This document shows positions 5,958 through 45,660 of a stretch of 64,000 nt of DNA, piece after piece. This DNA is from Acinetobacter phage ZZ1. The stretch is from the sequence record NC_018087.3, one strand, 5' to 3'. The position numbers were made by a program, and so were the translations under genes. How positions within the stretch are numbered: position 1 is the stretch's first letter; every line of letters starts with the position of its first letter. Under the pieces are notes generated by a model. That model was given only the letters and a program-made list of their open reading frames with translations. It searched no databases and had not been told where the DNA came from.

Positions 5958-6332
5958 TTAGGTATAGAATTTTTTACAATTATCAAAAAGAATTTGTTTC
6001 CATTTAGTTTCAGTCATTTGATCTTCATCATCCCACATCATACTATCAAATCCGTATTTTAAATAATCGGCGTATGCAAATAATGGAATTTCATCATGAA
6101 TAATTTCATAAATGTTGCGTACATACTCTTCAAAATACATACGTAATATACGAAGTTCAGTTTGAAATGATACACTAGTTAGTGCACCATTATATTTTTG
6201 ATAAAGTAATTTGCATGCGATGTTTGCAAAAATTGCTCGGTCATCACGGACCTGTTCGGGTTCACAAAAAGTTCTAGTCATTGCTTGCATACCATGTAAT
6301 AGTTTTACGACCGTATTCATCGGTAACTTCAA
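5958..6332 (-). CDS. hypothetical protein (124 aa)
   Basis: ORF. Confidence 0.3.
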   Translation of the reverse strand: MKLPMNTVVKLLHGMQAMTRTFCEPEQVRDDRAIFANIACKLLYQKYNGALTSVSFQTELRILRMYFEEYVRNIYEIIHDEIPLFAYADYLKYGFDSMMWDDEDQMTETKWKQILFDNCKKFYT

Positions 6333-6540
6333 AATCTAATTCTGCCAAGTCACCATTATGTGTACGAAGATGATCATCTTCATAAATCATATCTTCGATT
6401 AGTTGTGCCTGTTCTTGGATATGAGCAAGAATTTCTTTAATCAATACAACTTTACGCCGACTTGATTTAATCTTTATTTCTTCAAGCTGATTTTGTAAAT
6501 CACGCTCGAGAATAGATGCACCCACATGTTTTTTAGGCAT
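6274..6540 (-). CDS. hypothetical protein (88 aa)
   Basis: ORF overlapping its neighbour. Confidence 0.3.
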   Translation of the reverse strand: MPKKHVGASILERDLQNQLEEIKIKSSRRKVVLIKEILAHIQEQAQLIEDMIYEDDHLRTHNGDLAELDFEVTDEYGRKTITWYASND

Positions 6541-6785
6541 TAACTATTCTCCGAAGATGCGGACCATTCACCAGTTTCATGGTCATATGTACCACCCATG
6601 CCGTATGCAGGGCCCGAAATATAAAAAGTAAGCTTATGTTTATCTGCAAAAACTTCGGCTTCTAAAACGGCTGAATTAATTGCATCTTTTAAGCGTTTAA
6701 GTTCTTTTTGCTGTTCATCATATGTCATGTCATGTTCCTCAATTGGCTATTACTCATTCTAACATAAGTAATAGCCAAAGCAAAT

Positions 6786-13804: not shown

Positions 13805-14154
13805 TATATTACTCCTACCAAATAATTTAATATATGTAGTGTCGGTGTAATTCGTAAATCAGATTGATATGATTGCATTGCCATAGTATGAACATATTCA
13901 ACTGTTGAATTATGTGTACAACGAGCGTTTAATGTTGTTTCAATATTTTTACGAACTTGATCCACAGTATTAAAATATGTTTTCGGCCTTGGCAAATTTA
14001 AGGCTTTTAAAATTGCGGGTTGCCAATTAACAGAGAAGCCTTGTGGCTTCTCTTGAATAATAAACAAATGTGTTTCTAAACGCTCAAACACTTCATTTGT
14101 TTGACTAGATTTCATAACGTTTAACCACCATATCGTAACGAGGATGTTTTGCAC
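13804..14154 (-). CDS. hypothetical protein (116 aa) in gene-43 insertion
   Basis: ORF. Confidence 0.3.
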   Translation of the reverse strand: MQNILVTIWWLNVMKSSQTNEVFERLETHLFIIQEKPQGFSVNWQPAILKALNLPRPKTYFNTVDQVRKNIETTLNARCTHNSTVEYVHTMAMQSYQSDLRITPTLHILNYLVGVI

Positions 14155-14428
14155 GTAATTCTGATTGAATTTTTACAAAACCATCAAAAATTTCATGTAA
14201 CAAAGGTACTGTAATTGCTTTATGACTTAATGTTTTAGCCAATTCTAAAATTGCATCGCGAATATCTTTACGAACATCATCAGCAAACTGGTTTATAAAC
14301 ATATCATCACAATCTAATAATGCATTACCGTCACGAATTATGCATAAGTATGGATATACATTAACACTTTGAACTTGTGAGTTATGTGAAATTACGCCAG
14401 CATCAAATTCAATAAAATTGGTTTTCAT
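14105..14428 (-). CDS. hypothetical protein (107 aa) in gene-43 insertion
   Basis: ORF. Confidence 0.3.
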   Translation of the reverse strand: MKTNFIEFDAGVISHNSQVQSVNVYPYLCIIRDGNALLDCDDMFINQFADDVRKDIRDAILELAKTLSHKAITVPLLHEIFDGFVKIQSELRAKHPRYDMVVKRYEI

Positions 14429-37080: not shown

Positions 37081-37100
37081 AGGGAACTAATTTGTTCCCT
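37081..37100. terminator. bidirectional hairpin terminator downstream of GIY-YIG gene
   Basis: AGGGAAC-taattt-GTTCCCT with AAAAA before and TTTTTTT after. Confidence 0.55.
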
Positions 37101-37527
37101 TTTTTTCTTTTGCCTTTCGGCGTCCTTCCAACATACGAGTGTGCCAAAATTTATAAAATTCTGGGTCTTGCAATTTCTCTTGGAGGACTTGTGACGCTTT
37201 AATATTGCGTTCACGAATTAATTCAGTTGAATTGGTGGCATTTACATAATCGAACCCACCAAGGCCACCTAATTTAATGTTATATGAGTTCGGATTTGAG
37301 ACCAAATCGGCATCGACTAACTCCTTTTCGTGTTCATACATTGCGTCTTGGGTATCGTGATATTTTATAATTTCTTTTGTGAAATTATGAATACCATATT
37401 TTTTAATTGCCCGTTTAATAATTGTACCTGAGCCCATATAACCATCATCTAAATTGGATGTTTTATGAGCCCCGATATAAAAATGACCATTAACGTTGTT
37501 AGTGATCTTGTATGTGTAATAAAACAT
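37087..37527 (-). CDS. GIY-YIG homing endonuclease (Seg-like)
   Basis: N-terminus FYYTYKITNNVNGHFYIGAHKTS carries the GIY...YIG motif; size and position typical of free-standing HEGs in T4-like phages. Confidence 0.75.
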   Translation of the reverse strand: MFYYTYKITNNVNGHFYIGAHKTSNLDDGYMGSGTIIKRAIKKYGIHNFTKEIIKYHDTQDAMYEHEKELVDADLVSNPNSYNIKLGGLGGFDYVNATNSTELIRERNIKASQVLQEKLQDPEFYKFWHTRMLEGRRKAKEKKGTN

Positions 37528-40161: not shown

Positions 40162-40392
40162 TTATTGAATTACTGCAGTAGGTGTATAAAAATTAGATAA
40201 TACACTTAAAATCTTATCTAATTCAACTAATGCATGATATCGATTTTTATAAACTGATCTATGTTCGGTACATTCAACTTTGATACCAGTTGAAATATGA
40301 GTAACTCGAACACCTCTATCGGGCGTATTAACCCAATTACTATGTTTGCCTACTCTAAATGTATCAATTCTAATATCAGAAGGTAGTAGCAT
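40162..40392 (-). CDS. release-factor GGQ-domain-like protein lacking the GGQ motif (76 aa)
   Basis: DIRIDTFRVGKHSNWVNTPDRGVRVTHISTGIKVECTEHRSVYKNRYHAL aligns with the RF1/RF2 domain-3 core ([49 protein letters not shown]), but GGQ is replaced (HSN/KHS). Confidence 0.55.
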   Translation of the reverse strand: MLLPSDIRIDTFRVGKHSNWVNTPDRGVRVTHISTGIKVECTEHRSVYKNRYHALVELDKILSVLSNFYTPTAVIQ

Positions 40393-40404: not shown

Positions 40405-40510
40405 ATTTAAAAATACGAGCGGGAATCGAACCCGCTAGCGCCGTATGGTCTTACGCGAACCATTCTTTCAATGGAATCGAACCATCTGCAGCCTCCGCCG
40501 GCACCTTCCA
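40405..40510 (-). other. tRNA-like remnant: two tandem T-arm/acceptor-like minihelices
   Basis: Minus strand contains GATGGTTCGATTCCATT and GCGGGTTCGATTCCCGC T-arm-like hairpins, but no canonical cloverleaf could be folded. Confidence 0.3.
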
Positions 40511-40518
40511 CCAAGGTA

Positions 40519-40968
40519 TCAGGTAATAATATAAATTGGTTTTTGTGGTAATATCGTCTCTAAATTATCAATAGTTCGACGAATTTTTGCCATCAAGTTT
40601 TTATCAACAATTGCGTCAGGTCCAACATTAATAAAAACACGTTCGATTGTTTTAAGGGCATCAAATCCACGTAAGGAATTTGCATTTCTATAACCAGTAG
40701 AAAAAATAAAACAATCTTGGCCCAAATCAGATTTAAAATTCCGTGCTGCAGGTAAAGACTGTGCAACATAAAGATCAGTATCTTTATTAAAAATTTCTAA
40801 AATATTTTTAGTACAATTAATAGGTGTGCACACATAAATCATACGATTGTAAATGGCATCTATAGGTTTATACGTTATTGGAGTTGTGGTTGCAGCTTTC
40901 TCTTTTACCTTATGGCATGTAAGATCTAAAAATCGTTGTAACTCATTCATAACATTCCATCCAAACAT
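40519..40968 (-). CDS. hypothetical protein (149 aa)
   Basis: ORF immediately downstream of the tRNA-island terminator. Confidence 0.4.
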   Translation of the reverse strand: MFGWNVMNELQRFLDLTCHKVKEKAATTTPITYKPIDAIYNRMIYVCTPINCTKNILEIFNKDTDLYVAQSLPAARNFKSDLGQDCFIFSTGYRNANSLRGFDALKTIERVFINVGPDAIVDKNLMAKIRRTIDNLETILPQKPIYIIT

Positions 40969-41033: not shown

Positions 41034-41108
41034 GGCGGCGTCGCCAAGGACTCGAACCCTGGATTGCGGATTTGGAATCCACCGTGTTTCCAACTACACT
41101 AACGACCC
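41034..41108 (-). tRNA. tRNA-Trp (anticodon CCA)
   Basis: Manual fold: D-stem GTGT/ACAC, anticodon stem GTGGA/TCCGC, loop TTCCAAA, T-arm CAGGG-TTCGAGT-CCTTG. Acceptor has one G.G mismatch and CCA is not exactly encoded. Confidence 0.55.
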
Positions 41109-41347
41109 TTAAACTGCAAATGTGCCAGCATGAAATAATCTCAAACACAATATAAAACATGTTGTCAACGCAGGAAAGCTTAATGGCATGTCACGATATA
41201 AATTGACAAGTGCATGCAAGCTGTTCTTTTTTAATTATATAGTAAGCACCAACAAATTGTGAAACGGTGGAATGAGTGAGGCAATTTGCTTTACTCAAGT
41301 ACCTATACTTACTATAGTGTATATTCGTCTTACGAGAAATATACAAA

Positions 41348-41425
41348 TTGGTCTCCGTAGAATGATTTGAACATTCGACACCTGCGTCCCAAACGCAGTG
41401 CTCTACCAGACTGAGCTATACGGAG
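41348..41425 (-). tRNA. tRNA-Pro (anticodon UGG)
   Basis: Manual fold: acceptor CTCCGTA/TACGGAG, anticodon loop TTTGGGA (G37), T-arm GAATG-TTCAAAT-CATTC, encoded CCA. Confidence 0.7.
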
Positions 41426-41431
41426 TTAAAA

Positions 41432-41518
41432 TGGTGTGCCCCCTGGGATTCGAACCCAGATAGCGTTAGCGCCGGAGTTACAGTCCGGTGAGTATGGCCA
41501 ATAACTCGAACGAGACAC
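41432..41518 (-). tRNA. tRNA-Tyr (anticodon GUA), type II with long variable arm
   Basis: Acceptor GTGTCTC/GGGGCAC (G.U wobbles), anticodon arm CCGGA-CTGTAAC-TCCGG, variable arm GCG-CTAA-CGC, T-arm CTGGG-TTCGAAT-CCCAG, CCA. Confidence 0.7.
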
Positions 41519-41638
41519 ATAAATTGCCGTGAAATGTCCTTTTATACTTTCGAGCATTTCACCACTCAATAAGTAAATCTTGAAGCTTTGTTTGTTTTAC
41601 AAGAGGAAACTTCGTCCTGCTTATCAGGCAATTAAATC

Positions 41639-41733
41639 TGGCGGAAGGTGAGGGGGTCGAACCCTCAAGGCGTGTCACCACGCTCGACTGATTTCAAGTC
41701 AGCTGCCGTCGCCAGCTTTCGGCTTGACCTTCC
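41639..41733 (-). tRNA. tRNA-Ser (anticodon UGA), type II
   Basis: Acceptor GGAAGGT/ACCTTCC, anticodon loop CTTGAAA, long variable arm GCGTG-GTGA-CACGC, T-arm GAGGG-TTCGACC-CCCTC, G73, CCA. Confidence 0.7.
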
Positions 41734-41800
41734 AATAAAATATTGACGACCTAAGAACCTTTACACCAATAATGGAGACTTAGGACCCTTTACATCAATT

Positions 41801-41879
41801 TGGCTCCCACCGTGAGATTCGAACTCACCTAACCTCGGATTAACAGTCCGGTCCATGCACCTAGCTCGGATTCGTGGGA
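41801..41879 (-). tRNA. tRNA-Asn (anticodon GUU)
   Basis: Anticodon loop CUGUUAA as in E. coli tRNA-Asn, T-arm GTGAG-TTCGAAT-CTCAC, acceptor with one mismatch, CCA. Confidence 0.65.
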
Positions 41880-41886
41880 ATAATTC

Positions 41887-41962
41887 TGGTGCCGACACGA
41901 GGATTTGAACCCCGGACCCTCTGATTACAAAACAGACGCTCTACCAACTGAGCTATGACGGC
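41887..41962 (-). tRNA. tRNA-Thr (anticodon UGU)
   Basis: D-arm GCTC-AGTTGGTA-GAGC, anticodon loop TTTGTAA, T-arm CGGGG-TTCAAAT-CCTCG, acceptor GCCGTCA/TGTCGGC (one U.U), CCA. Confidence 0.7.
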
Positions 41963-42058
41963 AAATCATTAATCAAATGAACCCGGGATACAATTTGAAT
42001 TTTGCGAGGATAAGTCGCTCATCTACCGGTATCGCCAAGATCATTTGATTAATGATCT
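41962..42058. repeat. 17-bp perfect inverted repeat flanking a 60-nt structured insert, abutting the 5' end of tRNA-Thr
   Basis: AATCATTAATCAAATGA (41962-41978) and its exact reverse complement TCATTTGATTAATGATC (42041-42058). The insert contains an anticodon-arm-like hairpin GCGA-CTTATCC-TCGC. Confidence 0.5.
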
Positions 42059-42364
42059 TATACATTTATTTATACAACCCAAAAGGGCACCAGTATGACC
42101 ACTTGCCGAGAACACAGTGAGTTAAAACTCTTTATGACAAGATTAATAAAATTTGATCGCTAAAACTTTGAACTTTACGAAATAAAAACTTTAATCTTTG
42201 AGATTTAAACTTTAAGCTTTCGCAATTTTGGGATAATGTACAGTCTTCGCGCATGGGAATCTGTATCACCATCAAAGTTCTATAACCTTAGAAGTTAGCC
42301 GATTTTAGGATGCATCGGCTAGAACCCTCTACAGTTTTTGATCATACTGATTTTATTTAAAACA

Positions 42365-42934
42365 TTAATCTAAAACAATTAATGGATTATTTTCTGTTAA
42401 AATTGCGTCGAATTCAAGCTCGAAGAAATCTATTGTCTTTTTAATTTCATCGAGTTCTTCTTGTATGTCCAGAATTGTAGGTTTTTCTCGTTTTTCCAAC
42501 AATGTCTTGAACTCGGCGTCATCTGATGGAGTTTTGAGCATCTTAGCATCAAACTCACGTTCAACTTGAACAAACAGTGAACGATTTGCAGCTAAATCTT
42601 TTTGCATTTTAGCATATAAGGCTTTAAGCTGAGGTAAAACATGAGTACGATATGTTAACGCATCATTAATACTCATTTCCATGTTGCCAATTTGAATTGT
42701 ATGTTTTGCATTGGCTCGATTAATTGCACAGCGCAATTTAAATTCTTCAGCTAAGCGATCTTTAAATGATTGAATATTACGACGACTTCCTTCAGAAAAT
42801 TCTTTAACCGGTCGTGCTGTTGAAATTTCAACTCCATTACGGAATACACCAGAAAATGCTGCATCACGAAGATCTGAAGTGAATGATACTTTATTGCGTT
42901 TTAACGTAACTAAACCACGAGCGATTGTAGTCAT
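42365..42934 (-). CDS. hypothetical protein (189 aa) embedded in the tRNA island
   Basis: ORF between the two tRNA sub-clusters. Confidence 0.4.
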   Translation of the reverse strand: MTTIARGLVTLKRNKVSFTSDLRDAAFSGVFRNGVEISTARPVKEFSEGSRRNIQSFKDRLAEEFKLRCAINRANAKHTIQIGNMEMSINDALTYRTHVLPQLKALYAKMQKDLAANRSLFVQVEREFDAKMLKTPSDDAEFKTLLEKREKPTILDIQEELDEIKKTIDFFELEFDAILTENNPLIVLD

Positions 42935-43155
42935 AATAAATTCCTCTATTCAAAATAAACTTTATGTGATCATTATATCATTAAATTATGAAAAGCAACT
43001 TAATTACTAATCATGTCCAACTTTTTTATTACATAATATACAAGTAGATTCTTTAGAATAATAACCCATATCATTTAACATTCTAGCTGTATATGAATCA
43101 TTATCTTTAGTTACTTGATAATAATGTTTGCAAAATAACTGTTTGAAGAACTTAA

Positions 43156-43398
43156 TCATTTAAGACGCACCTTGGCTTCAAAAACAAATCTGTATTCATC
43201 ATCCGTCAAAACTTTGGCTCGTTCATAAGAAGTTGCCATTCTTAAAACGGCACCAGTATATGATACAATTGCAAAAACACAATTTTTAGAATCTTTATTG
43301 GCAATTTCACCAACTTTAAATCTAAATTTTTTATACGTATATTTATTATCATACGTACATAAAAATTGTGCTAAATTTTTAGAAAATGTAAATCTCAT
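43156..43398 (-). CDS. hypothetical protein (80 aa) embedded in the tRNA island
   Basis: ORF. Confidence 0.35.
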   Translation of the reverse strand: MRFTFSKNLAQFLCTYDNKYTYKKFRFKVGEIANKDSKNCVFAIVSYTGAVLRMATSYERAKVLTDDEYRFVFEAKVRLK

Positions 43399-43599
43399 TA
43401 ATTTACCATCTTCATTTAAAATTCCATAAATTGAACGGCTTGATGTTTTATCAATGCACTTGCGACAAATCTATTTATTCATGGTAAACCTCATCAATTA
43501 AGGGTTAAAAGAAATAAAGGAGGTTTTTCATTCAAGGACCTCATACCTTTGCCAATGAGAGGGCATGCTAAGCAGTGGTCACATCTCAGGCTATGAATT

Positions 43600-43675
43600 T
43601 GGTGGATACCGGGAGTGCTTGCACCTCCAATCAACTACGTTGTCCGCTGCTTTACTATTTAAGCTAACAGTACCC
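43600..43675 (-). ncRNA. atypical tRNA-like RNA gene (acceptor stem + CCA, non-canonical arms)
   Basis: Minus strand GGGTACT...GGTATCC-A-CCA forms a 7-bp acceptor stem (with G.U) and a D-arm-like GCTT-AAATAGTA-AAGC. It lies 1 nt 3' of tRNA-Cys, but the T-loop is GTGCAAGCA and no clear anticodon arm exists. Confidence 0.3.
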
Positions 43676-43676
43676 A

Positions 43677-43753
43677 TGGAGACGCCGGATGGATTCGAAC
43701 CCTCATCGACGCGGATTTGCAATCCGCCGCATAACCAATTCTGCCACGACGTC
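43677..43753 (-). tRNA. tRNA-Cys (anticodon GCA)
   Basis: Acceptor GACGTCG/CGGCGTC, anticodon arm GCGGA-TTGCAAA-TCCGC, T-loop TTCGAAT (one mismatch in T-stem), U73, CCA. Confidence 0.6.
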
Positions 43754-43944
43754 ATAAAATTTATTAAATGCAAGCAACTTCCTCAGTTTCCCCTGGCTAC
43801 CACACCAGTGCATTAAAGTTTCATTTATCTAGCATGACAGTCCCTGCAGTGACCAACATATTCAATAAAATTATTCAAAACTACATTTTCGGGAGCGACC
43901 CTATTCACTTCGTTTTTATATGCTATACTTGCTCTAATAAATCT

Positions 43945-44021
<77 letters not shown>

Positions 44022-44026
44022 AAAAA

Positions 44027-44102
44027 TGGTCCGCCTGACAGGATTCGAACCTGTGTGAGTCGCAATAGAACTACGATGCCTAATCCATTCGGCCACAGAC
44101 GG
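44027..44102 (-). tRNA. tRNA-Arg (anticodon UCU)
   Basis: Acceptor CCGTCTG/CAGGCGG, anticodon arm TCGTA-GTTCTAT-TGCGA, T-arm ACAGG-TTCGAAT-CCTGT, CCA. T4 also carries tRNA-Arg(UCU). Confidence 0.65.
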
Positions 44103-44107
44103 ATGTT

Positions 44108-44188
44108 TGGTGGAAAAGACAAGAATTGCACTTGCATATCCAGGAGTTATTAAGTTCCCGGGCGTTCACTTTGTTTCGCCACTTTCCC
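44108..44188 (-). ncRNA. atypical tRNA-like gene with expanded (10-nt) anticodon loop ACUUAAUAAC and T-loop TGCAATT
   Basis: Acceptor GGGAAAG/CTTTTCC, A73, CCA; D-arm GGCG-loop-CGCC; anticodon stem CGGGA/TCCTG around a 10-nt loop; T-arm GCAAG-TGCAATT-CTTGT. Packed 5-7 nt from the flanking tRNAs like a real tRNA gene. Confidence 0.35.
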
Positions 44189-44195
44189 ATAAATT

Positions 44196-44269
44196 TGGTC
44201 GTTCAGGACGGATTCGAACCGTCACACAGAGTTTTAGGGACTCCTGGTCTACCGTTAACCTACTGAACG
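44196..44269 (-). tRNA. tRNA with anticodon CUA (amber/UAG-reading; suppressor-type), identity unknown
   Basis: Perfect acceptor CGTTCAG/CTGAACG, A73, CCA; D-arm GGTT-AACGGTA-GACC; anticodon stem GGAGT/ACTCT (one G.U) with loop CCCUAAA, so 34-36 = CUA; T-arm GACGG-TTCGAAT-CCGTC. C33 instead of U33 is unusual. Confidence 0.5.
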
Positions 44270-44272
44270 AAA

Positions 44273-44291
44273 CCCGCTAAAATAAAGCGGG
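44273..44291 (-). terminator. hairpin (terminator or processing signal) immediately 5' of the CUA tRNA
   Basis: CCCGCT-aaaataa-AGCGGG; on the minus strand it is followed by TTT and then tRNA nucleotide 1. Confidence 0.45.
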
Positions 44292-44440
44292 AGTTGATCA
44301 AGTTACGCATTATCAAGAGGCTATTGATCCATGAAAATAAAATTACTTGACCATCCTGGCAGATTTGTTGGAATTCCACCAACTATCTCCATCATATCTA
44401 AGATGGCATTCTAATCTTGAACTATAATCCACTAGGTCAA

Positions 44441-44576
44441 AGTAACTTTTAAATGATAACGAATATTGATGGGACTCGAACCACATATCAACCGGGTTTA
44501 ACAGGCCGGTTATGCTCCAGTATCAGGCGCAAGCTTAACCAATTAGCTACTAATTCATTATCATTTAAAAGTTACC
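44441..44576 (-). pseudogene. degenerate type-II tRNA-like element flanked by 18-bp perfect inverted repeat (23-bp stem overall)
   Basis: GTAACTTTTAAATGATAA (44441-44458) and its exact reverse complement (44559-44576). The enclosed ~95 nt has a canonical D-arm (AGCT-AATTGGTTA-AGCT), an Asn-like CTGTTAA hairpin and a TTCGAGT T-loop, but the stems do not close into a cloverleaf. Confidence 0.35.
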
Positions 44577-44601: not shown

Positions 44602-44859
44602 TTAAGCAGTTGCTTCAACTAAACCTAATTTAACAGCGTTTTCATAATCTACCATTTCAATTGCATCCATGATAGTGTCAAAATCTTCATTGACAGCAGT
44701 TTGAATAATATCGCCATTACGTGCTTCAAATGTTACCGCTACTACACCGTTTTCATATTGAACTAGGCCGCGGATTTTAGCTGCATCAAGAGCAAAACGT
44801 GCAATATTAGTAGCTTGTGGTACGTCTTTACGAACAGATAAAGAAATGCGAGTTGCCAT
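44602..44859 (-). CDS. hypothetical protein (85 aa) in the ipI position, with late promoter
   Basis: ORF between 57B and the tRNA island; TATAAATA (minus strand) lies ~35 nt upstream. Confidence 0.4.
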   Translation of the reverse strand: MATRISLSVRKDVPQATNIARFALDAAKIRGLVQYENGVVAVTFEARNGDIIQTAVNEDFDTIMDAIEMVDYENAVKLGLVEATA

Positions 44860-44891: not shown

Positions 44892-44899
44892 TATTTATA
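44892..44899 (-). promoter_or_regulatory. T4-type late promoter TATAAATA (minus strand)
   Basis: Forward TATTTATA is TATAAATA on the minus strand, upstream of ORF 44602..44859. Confidence 0.5.
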
Positions 44900-45204: not shown

Positions 45205-45660
45205 TTATTTTTCAGGAGACCAATCTAAATCTAAATCCTCAACATATTCATGCGTGGCGCCGATTGAAATTTTAAACTCCAATTTAGGCTTTGCCATCGC
45301 CCCAATATCATATGCTAATGTAATATGAGGTTGATAATCCGGAAAATCATAAGTTGCACCCAATGCTTGTGCATATGCAAAACGAGAGTGCAAATAAGGT
45401 GAATCTAGTAATAACACAAGGGCTCGTTTGCCGTTATGTTCAAATATTTCAAAGTCTTTAGCATATGCAATAATACCAAGATTGTCCATTGGTTTAAATG
45501 GAACAAACACACGAGAATAGCATATTGTAGAATGTAATTTATCGCGAGGTGTTGCATCAAATAACTTTAATTTATCTTGTAAATCGCATAAAGCATCTAA
45601 TGTGTCATTACTAAATTTGACCGCAGCATATGTACCACGGTCAAGTTGACTAAATTTCAT
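45205..45660 (-). CDS. 57B: gp57B-position protein (151 aa)
   Basis: Synteny (57B-57A-1-3-2-4) and size (T4 57B is 152 aa). Confidence 0.4.
   Translation of the reverse strand: MKFSQLDRGTYAAVKFSNDTLDALCDLQDKLKLFDATPRDKLHSTICYSRVFVPFKPMDNLGIIAYAKDFEIFEHNGKRALVLLLDSPYLHSRFAYAQALGATYDFPDYQPHITLAYDIGAMAKPKLEFKISIGATHEYVEDLDLDWSPEK

Follow-up and report, generated by a model that had tools for sequence, protein, structure and literature searches.

Orphan suppressor transfer RNAs (tRNAs) with the anticodon CUA occur in phages that use the standard genetic code, for instance in the Xanthomonas jumbo phage XacN1 (PMC5852040). For phages with an altered code, Borges et al. proposed a route in which a low G+C content leads to depletion of TAG, followed by the acquisition of a suppressor and finally by recoding (10.1101/2021.08.26.457843). 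The gene considered here is a tRNA gene with the anticodon CUA in the genome of Acinetobacter phage ZZ1 (sequence record NC_018087.3), of which a stretch of 64,000 nucleotides, referred to as the window, was analysed. The window comprises positions 32001-96000 of the ZZ1 genome, and published coordinates are obtained by adding 32000 to those given here. The region is 98-99% identical to that of the Acinetobacter phages vB_AbaSt_W16 (W16) and Henu6, which belong to the T4-like phages (Straboviridae, Twarogvirinae). In the ZZ1 genome paper, eight tRNAs are listed in Table 2, among them ZZ1t008, "Sup (CTA)", at 76196-76269 (74 bp, 51.4% G+C), for which "Pyl (CTA)" of phage Acj9 is given as homolog (Jin et al. 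2014, BMC Genomics, PMC4177764). ZZ1t008 is the same gene, as coordinates (+32000), length (74 bp) and G+C content (51.4%) all match. Homologs in Acj9, AbTZA1, Berthold and other records are annotated as tRNA-Pyl, TERM or Sup-CTA. The gene was thus already annotated for ZZ1; its meaning was left unexamined in that publication, which tabulates the tRNA without discussion and whose text contains 0 occurrences of suppression, amber or stop codons (PMC4177764).

The gene itself is nothing new, as both the ZZ1 paper and dozens of GenBank records contain it, and phage CUA suppressors are well documented. What is added here is the context: a loop carried by two scaffolds, a standard code combined with TAG depletion, natural losses of the tRNA, and a C at position 33 (C33) that recurs in this tRNA lineage. 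PMC4177764 describes neither the C33 anomaly nor the two scaffolds, the check for the standard code or the TAG depletion. With a confidence somewhat above an even chance, we read the gene as a phage amber-suppressor tRNA that would be charged by the host and active during infection, and not as part of a recoding system or as a device for programmed read-through.

An intact tRNA gene with the anticodon CUA

44196-44269, minus strand: tRNA gene, anticodon CUA, 74 nt including the encoded CCA (ARAGORN, Rfam RF00005, minimum-free-energy fold)
44235-44237, minus strand: anticodon CUA, tRNA positions 34-36 (ARAGORN, Rfam, alignments to relatives)

The gene corresponds exactly to an ARAGORN tRNA call with the anticodon cta, located at raw position 33, and is one of eight minus-strand tRNAs at 41037-44269. 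The Rfam model RF00005 matches it with 59.6 bits (gathering score 29; E=2e-10 for the window) over 44199-44269, covering model positions 1-71 of 71, and the alignment places CUA at positions 34-36, in the same register as ARAGORN. The cloverleaf, with stems of 7/4/5/5 bp, is also the unconstrained minimum-free-energy fold. Other anticodon registers, such as UAA/Leu, are ruled out, since ARAGORN, Rfam and the free fold are concordant. The acceptor stem (CGUUCAG/CUGAACG) consists of 7 Watson-Crick base pairs including C1-G72 and is followed by A73 and the encoded CCA. The D-arm (GGUU-AACGGUA-GACC) has a U13.G22 wobble in its stem and GG within its loop, the anticodon arm (GGAGU-CCCUAAA-ACUCU) contains a G27.U43 wobble, and the T-arm reads GACGG-UUCGAAU-CCGUC. 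A variable loop of 4 nt makes the molecule a class-I tRNA. All 21 stem pairs (21/21) are intact, and the conserved residues U8, A14, G18G19, T54-Psi55-C56 (GTTCGAAT) and a purine at position 37 are all present. The score and the full-length cloverleaf are those of a canonical elongator tRNA, and CUA occupies positions 34-36 of a 7-nt loop, as in amber suppressors. The U-turn nucleotide U33 of canonical elongator tRNAs is replaced by C33 (base 44238), so that the loop reads CCCUAAA in place of the CUCUAAA of relatives. A BLAST search with the tRNA against E. coli genomes gave no match. Taken together, 44196-44269(-) is an intact class-I tRNA gene with the anticodon CUA in the correct register. 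An earlier sequence-only reading had proposed a near-ideal 74-nt minus-strand tRNA, which ARAGORN, Rfam and the free fold bear out. The details that it named, namely the 7-bp acceptor stem, A73, CCA, the 4-bp D-stem, the GG of the D-loop, the T-arm, CUA at 34-36 in a supF-like A37-A38 context and C33 as sole irregularity, are likewise all found.

Based on the anticodon, ARAGORN labels the gene "tRNA-Pyl", a name that is repeated in many GenBank records. A tRNA-Pyl folds with a 6-bp anticodon stem, a 3-nt variable loop and one base between acceptor and D stems, has a small D-loop without G18G19, lacks a T-Psi-C consensus, and is accompanied by pylS/pylBCD genes. The ZZ1 tRNA, however, forms a canonical cloverleaf with G18G19, the T-loop UUCGAAU, a 5-bp anticodon stem and two bases (U8-A9) between acceptor and D stems. 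Furthermore, no synthetase or pyl genes are annotated in the regions of the 167-kb W16 genome that were read, about 116 kb within 1-99 kb and 124-167 kb. A pyrrolysine tRNA is ruled out by structure, its probability being next to nil, and "Pyl" reflects the ARAGORN naming convention for CUA.

The same anticodon loop on two unrelated scaffolds

A CUA tRNA is found at the same slot in AbTZA1 (annotated as tRNA-Sup-CTA), PhT2, Morttis, Acj9, Berthold and AB1I1M-1. This slot, the first tRNA position after the gp57B/Acb1 gene and two small open reading frames (ORFs), is syntenic across these six relatives. BLAST searches retrieved CUA tRNAs from about 59 related phage records, which fall without overlap into family A (15 records) and family B (44 records). 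The family A scaffold is shared by ZZ1, W16 and Henu6 (three genomes, of which only W16 and Henu6 are counted as collection records), the AbTZA1 type (11 records) and Acj9 (2 records); a pattern scan of IMG/VR for this family found only Acj9 and AbTZA1 contigs. The family B scaffold, that of the Berthold/PhT2 type, is unrelated to family A. Both families occur inside the genus Hadassahvirus and never together in one record. In the family B tRNAs of PhT2 (L004:5581-5656(-)) and AB1I1M-1 (L007:4501-4575(+)), the acceptor stem can be closed only if one additional U of the 3' strand is left unpaired (GCACCUG ... CAGGU-U-GC-A-CC); that of the Berthold type is perfect.

The CUA tRNA sequence is identical in ZZ1, W16 and Henu6, which are three independent isolates. 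Across six representatives, compensatory double changes are found at 12/16 predicted stem pairs, differences between the anticodon stems are likewise compensated, and the anticodon CUA is constant. The ZZ1 copy has no stem mismatch despite an identity of 65-81% (alignment-dependent) to AbTZA1 and Acj9. On both scaffolds, the anticodon loop is C-U-CUA-A-A, the supF loop with A36-A37-A38, and C33 is seen only in the ZZ1/W16/Henu6 clade. Because the same loop sits on two unrelated scaffolds whose stems have changed in a compensated manner, the UAG-reading anticodon loop itself appears to be under selection, and the pattern would otherwise be hard to explain. This distribution shows a CUA tRNA that is kept by purifying selection across most T4-like Acinetobacter phages.

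Phages 133 and Acj61 are without the CUA tRNA. The corresponding slot of Acj61 (L021:5082-5151(-)) holds a tRNA-like sequence of 26.6 bits, below the gathering score and similar in its 3' part to the CUA tRNA of family B; it is suggestive only of a trace of tRNA loss. In phage 133, the slot (L016 ~6540-6590(-)) contains only an 11-mer (GTGTAGCTCAA) and a T-arm-like motif and gives no Rfam match, and a tRNA remnant is not claimed there.

TAG stop codons are rarer in phages carrying the tRNA

The shares of TAG among stop codons were compared with a single ORF caller, leaving out ORFs that overlap tRNA genes. Some of the TAG calls were compared visually with the coding-sequence ends annotated in the records.

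ZZ1/W16, CUA tRNA present: TAG 10/240, 4.2%
Acj9, CUA tRNA present: TAG 10/223, 4.5%
Berthold (family B), CUA tRNA present: TAG 6/148, 4.1%
133, CUA tRNA absent: TAG 24/217, 11.1%
Acj61, CUA tRNA absent: TAG 12/157, 7.6%
T4 (first 50 kb), CUA tRNA absent: TAG 8/86, 9.3%

Pooled, TAG accounts for 26/611 stops (4.3%) in phages with the tRNA and for 44/460 (9.6%) in those without it (Fisher p=6.6e-4). The difference is also seen for ORFs of at least 150 amino acids (3.0% vs. 9.8%, p=0.0013) and for 51 orthologs shared by five Acinetobacter phages (4/153 vs. 11/102, p=0.012). The G+C ranges of the compared phages overlap (34-40%), and Acj9, 133 and Acj61 share the host A. johnsonii. For Berthold, a TAG share of at most 6% had been predicted beforehand, and the share found lies below this value. 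Whichever way the association arose, it would imply that UAG is read by the CUA tRNA, as either suppression purges TAG or the rarity of TAG permits a suppressor.

ZZ1 uses the standard genetic code

The 107 long ORFs of the window end in TAA (72), TGA (32) or TAG (3), which agrees with the statement of the sequence-only reading that stops are overwhelmingly TAA or TGA; in a proxy for the whole genome, composed of the window and pieces of W16, the counts are 172, 61 and 10, respectively. In the standard code (code 11), the coding density amounts to 0.93-0.96, and it is not increased when TAG is treated as a sense codon. No genes with an in-frame TAG were found in ZZ1, Acj9 or Berthold, each "internal" TAG being either a true stop or part of a spurious 5' extension. 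Read-through of the ten TAG-terminated ZZ1-type genes would add 0, 2, 3, 3, 3, 3, 3, 16, 20 or 25 residues, and no conserved in-frame extension past a TAG was found. Among the predicted additions are ML for the gp15 homolog, EIK for rIII, 20 residues for a PinA-like and 25 for a QacE-like protein; further TAG-terminated genes are the window ORFs 6274-6540, 14105-14428 and 37087-37527. Across the 51 orthologs of the five Acinetobacter phages, TAG stops occur at scattered positions without conservation; the only ortholog with a shared TAG stop is uvsW, in three phages, two of which lack the CUA tRNA. ZZ1 uses the standard code and displays the properties of neither a TAG-recoded phage nor a system for programmed read-through.

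These results bear on the proposal of the sequence-only reading that the tRNA serves programmed read-through or recoding. According to this explanation, the tRNA would act with an ORF resembling a release factor (RF), either through read-through of proteins or through blocking of the host RF1. The two are indeed encoded in one cluster, and recoded phages join suppressor tRNAs and release factors in "code change modules" (10.1101/2021.08.26.457843). Two TAG-terminated genes of Acj9 (L014:44273-46423(-) and L020:34477-35430(-)) are in frame with the next gene without a stop in between. These are Acj9p084 (nucleotidyltransferase-like) and gp30.2, which would be fused by UAG read-through to Acj9p083 and Acj9p206; no fused ortholog of either pair was found in other phages, and 2/10 is within chance. 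The absence of in-frame TAG genes and of a gain in density, the short extensions (0-25 codons) in ZZ1 and the lack of conservation of TAG stops speak against this explanation, as does the RF-like ORF itself:

40162-40392, minus strand: 76-amino acid ORF, stand-alone RF-1 domain without GGQ (Pfam PF00472, E=3e-10)
RF-like orthologs: L006:5257-5493; L004:4115-4351; L003:9016-9246; L002:3716-3952; L007:5434-5667; L016:368-532; L021:1816-1971

The GGQ-less RF-like ORF noted by the sequence-only reading is real. It is located at the opposite end of the tRNA cluster from the CUA tRNA, 3.8 kb away, and carries VGKHSNW in place of SGAGGQH, the GGQ motif of class-I release factors and ArfB. The best solved match of its profile is domain 3 of E. 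coli RF1 (residues ~217-276, E=1e-17); with only 76 amino acids, it comprises domain 3 and lacks the codon-recognition domains 2 and 4 (PxT/SPF). All aligned orthologs (6/6) are without GGQ. A search for homologs with the ZZ1 protein returned solely the identical (100%) ZZ1 protein. The RF-like ORF is found in all six Acinetobacter T4-like lineages examined, and in each it adjoins the tRNA cluster or lies within it; its own stop codon is TAG in Acj9 and Acj61. Because it is also present in 133 and Acj61, which have no CUA tRNA, the ORF and the tRNA are uncoupled, and their co-occurrence lends no support to a specific partnership. The functional link that had been proposed between the two is thereby left unsupported, interference with the host RF1 would be speculative, and programmed read-through or partial recoding, which is largely refuted by the genome analysis, is very unlikely.

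The substitution at position 33

U33 is nearly invariant in elongator tRNAs, and the exceptions cited are the C33 of eukaryotic initiator tRNAs and the G33 of the CUG-reassigning tRNA-Ser of Candida (PMC5041475, PMC11122139). The copy of ZZ1, W16 and Henu6 could be inactive or decaying, the change from U33 to C33 having crippled decoding and left the relic of a suppressor that is functional in relatives. Among CUA tRNAs, C33 is confined to this clade, the tRNA has been lost elsewhere (133, Acj61, the latter with the decayed tRNA-like sequence mentioned above), and tRNA debris and a degenerate tRNA-like unit adjoin the CUA tRNA in ZZ1. A decaying gene would, however, hardly keep 21 intact stem pairs with compensated differences from its relatives and an identical sequence in three independent isolates. 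Moreover, TAG is as rare among the stops of the ZZ1-type genome as among those of phages whose tRNA has U33. A survey of 109 tRNAs from ten loci of these phages revealed only five without U33, namely the CUA tRNAs of ZZ1 and W16 and the following three genes:

L003:8116-8191, plus strand: tRNA-Ile(GAU) with C33, Acj9
L016:3501-3576, minus strand: tRNA-Ile(GAU) with C33, 133
L021:3661-3736, minus strand: tRNA-Ile(GAU) with C33, Acj61

All three carry the loop CCGAUAA. They share with family A, and especially with the AbTZA1 type, the C1-G72 acceptor stem CGUCGA.../...UCGACG-A-CCA, and they are as similar to the members of family A as those members are among themselves. Because C33 is kept in the tRNA-Ile(GAU) of three divergent phages, it is tolerated and conserved in this tRNA lineage. 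The presence of C33 and of this acceptor stem in both groups may reflect a shared origin or a selected change of the loop, for example one that evades nucleases. In the ZZ1 clade, C33 probably lowers the efficiency of decoding rather than signalling pseudogenisation; decay of the gene is on this evidence unlikely.

The recurrence of C33 in the lineage would also be compatible with a tRNA that serves not in the decoding of stop codons but as decoy, substitute or sensor against tRNA-targeting defences of the host, such as anticodon nucleases, retron or PARIS-type effectors or RelE-like A-site toxins, or as a source of regulatory fragments. Evasion of such defences by phage tRNAs whose anticodon loops are altered has been both proposed and shown (PMC10264068, PMC11555353), and the cluster lies beside the anti-CBASS gene Acb1 and other genes of the counter-defence type. 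On the other hand, there is no cellular tRNA with a CUA anticodon and thus no host tRNA to replace, the constant feature of the two scaffolds is an anticodon loop that is optimal for UAG reading, and depletion of TAG stops is a prediction of a tRNA that decodes. A role outside decoding appears quite improbable.

A probable host-charged amber suppressor

If the gene encodes a host-charged amber suppressor, the tRNA would be transcribed together with the cluster, after which host enzymes would process it and a host aminoacyl-tRNA synthetase would charge it. During infection, the charged tRNA would then compete with the host RF1 for UAG in the ribosomal A site. Because the code is standard and genes with in-frame TAG are absent, the visible consequence would be selection against TAG stops and not recoding, seen as roughly half the TAG share of relatives without the tRNA.

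The inserted amino acid would most plausibly be Lys or Gln. In E. coli, U35 is a main identity element for both GlnRS and LysRS, and A73 favours Lys. As the CUA tRNA lacks G3.U70, G-1 and a long variable arm, the routes via Ala, His, Ser, Leu and Tyr are excluded. The family A scaffold looks Ile-derived, with tRNA-Ile(GAU) as nearest tRNA (0.71); IleRS depends on the anticodon, and the acceptor stem shared with tRNA-Ile is a lead and not an identity call. The nearest tRNAs of family B are tRNA-Met/Ile(CAU) (0.71). The most economical candidates for a benefit would be the pre-recoding stage of Borges et al. and protection, in an AT-rich genome, against nonsense mutations that turn CAG, AAG or TGG into TAG; a role in defence conflicts is a further candidate. 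A homolog of T4 cef, a "modifier of suppressor tRNAs", is encoded by Berthold, Acj61 and Acj9 and was not seen in the ZZ1/W16 sequence examined.

Several observations weigh against an active suppressor. Given the near-invariance of U33, decoding by the ZZ1 copy may be poor or absent. The tRNA is dispensable, because 133 and Acj61 live without it. The comparison of TAG shares is based on genes and genomes that are not independent, with an effective sample of 3 vs. 3 lineages, and the rarity of TAG may have permitted the tRNA and not resulted from it. The TAG share of at least 8% that had been preset for Acj61 was only borderline (7.6-9.1%). Back-up stops within 3 codons follow the TAG stop in 7/10 ZZ1-type genes, compared with 33% for TAA/TGA (Fisher p=0.024 with a post-hoc threshold; Mann-Whitney p=0.26); because this excess was not replicated in Acj9 (1/7), it was treated as chance. 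Finally, identity to 81 phage tRNAs, determined pairwise and with MAFFT, gives no decisive isotype parent.

Genomic setting of the tRNA cluster

41037-44269, minus strand: tRNA cluster, CUA tRNA as first, most upstream member (ARAGORN and Rfam)
44273-44291, minus strand: G+C-rich hairpin of 6 bp with 7-nt loop, then UUU; abuts the tRNA 5' end (terminator-like scan)
44111-44188, minus strand: degenerate tRNA-like element (Rfam 34.4 bits; missed by ARAGORN)

The cluster is arranged in the order CUA, tRNA-like element, Arg(UCU), Met(CAU), Cys(GCA), three small ORFs, Thr(UGU), Ser(UGA), Pro(UGG) and Trp(CCA). The small hairpin followed by TTT that the sequence-only reading had placed at the 5' end of the CUA tRNA is present at 44291-44273 (CCCGC-UUUAUUUUA-GCGGG, then UUU). 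It looks like an intrinsic terminator and may act as that of the upstream transcript, or as a leader or processing element. Motifs of T4-type late promoters, TATAAATA, are located at 44899 and 42074 (-), upstream of each tRNA sub-cluster. They represent two of only four occurrences on that strand within 64 kb, and the one at 44899 stands 40 nt before the ATG of the ORF 44602-44859; their placement hints at late transcription of the tRNAs. In a scan for Sigma-70 promoters, the number of matches was not above the shuffled expectation.

Just upstream of the cluster, the gp57B homolog (45205-45660(-)) is the anti-CBASS phosphodiesterase Acb1 (Pfam PF23474, E=1e-49), which several records label "RNA ligase". 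The element at 44111-44188 sits directly downstream of the CUA tRNA, before tRNA-Arg. It has a 10-nt anticodon loop (ACUUAAUAAC), the T-loop UGCAAUU and an encoded CCA, is devoid of G18G19 and lies outside the eight published ZZ1 tRNAs. Its absence from W16 corresponds to a clean indel of 87 nt. Isolated T-arm-like hairpins (AGCGGGTTCGATTCCCGCT; ATGGTTCGATTCCAT) are found at 40418-40436 and ~40467-40487(-), between the ORF 40519-40968 and the RF-like ORF, and further tRNA-like debris (e.g., GTGGTTCGAGTCCCAT) at ~44300-44560(-), in the gap of 330 nt that precedes the CUA tRNA. The hairpins and the debris resemble the remains of decayed tRNA genes and suggest that the cluster turns over rapidly.

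Comparison with known suppressor tRNAs and recoded phages

The anticodon loop of E. coli supF, a tRNA-Tyr with the anticodon CUA, is CUCUAAA and thus the same as in the relatives of ZZ1. Within this loop, A36-A37-A38 is the motif for modifications of the i6A37 type, which efficient UAG readers need. In contrast to supF, which is a class-II Tyr tRNA with U33, the ZZ1 tRNA belongs to class I and has a 4-nt variable loop, C1-G72, A73 and C33. Laboratory amber suppressors and a synthetic tRNA(CUA) series have reportedly been described as well (Yarus, "extended anticodon"; Normanly et al. 1990). For the tRNA-Ser of Candida, G33 is thought to damp decoding and to make the ambiguous codon tolerable. 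This tRNA-Ser(CAG) (cited in PMC5041475) likewise reassigns a codon and departs from U33; it differs from the ZZ1 tRNA in domain of life, in having G33 instead of C33 and in the codon read, and damping in ZZ1 is an analogy only.

With TAG-recoded phages (crAss-like, Lak and others), ZZ1 shares a CUA tRNA, a low-G+C genome and rare TAG stops. Recoded phages, however, have in-frame TAG in late or lysis genes, which was found neither in ZZ1 nor in its relatives, and some of them encode a full RF2, whereas the RF-like ORF of ZZ1 is a GGQ-less fragment of 76 amino acids. ZZ1 fits the intermediate step of Borges et al. in which a suppressor is acquired before recoding. It is tempting, if tentative, to regard the T4-like Acinetobacter phages as a cultivable standard-code lineage at an intermediate stage of TAG reassignment, in which an active suppressor, for which a second scaffold can substitute, might have driven a roughly two-fold purge of TAG and might have been tuned down in the ZZ1 clade by C33, the base also seen in the related tRNA-Ile(GAU). 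The TAG shares of 133 and Acj61, which would represent loss lineages, are similar to that of T4. If this were true, genetic experiments with ZZ1 and A. baumannii could test the model of Borges et al. for code change directly. Should the association survive phylogenetic control and UAG suppression be shown, these candidate phages for therapy would provide a tractable model of the state before reassignment, and amber-based engineering or containment of the phages and their hosts would be leaky.

XacN1 offers a parallel. As in ZZ1, its CUA tRNA lies within a tRNA cluster, the code is standard, TAG stops are few, and read-through in silico revealed no targets. XacN1 is, however, an unrelated jumbo phage with a near-complete set of tRNAs, whereas the CUA tRNA of ZZ1 is one of only eight. 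In the relatives of ZZ1, moreover, conservation of a CUA tRNA extends over a subfamily and involves two scaffolds, and lineages that have naturally lost it are available for comparison.

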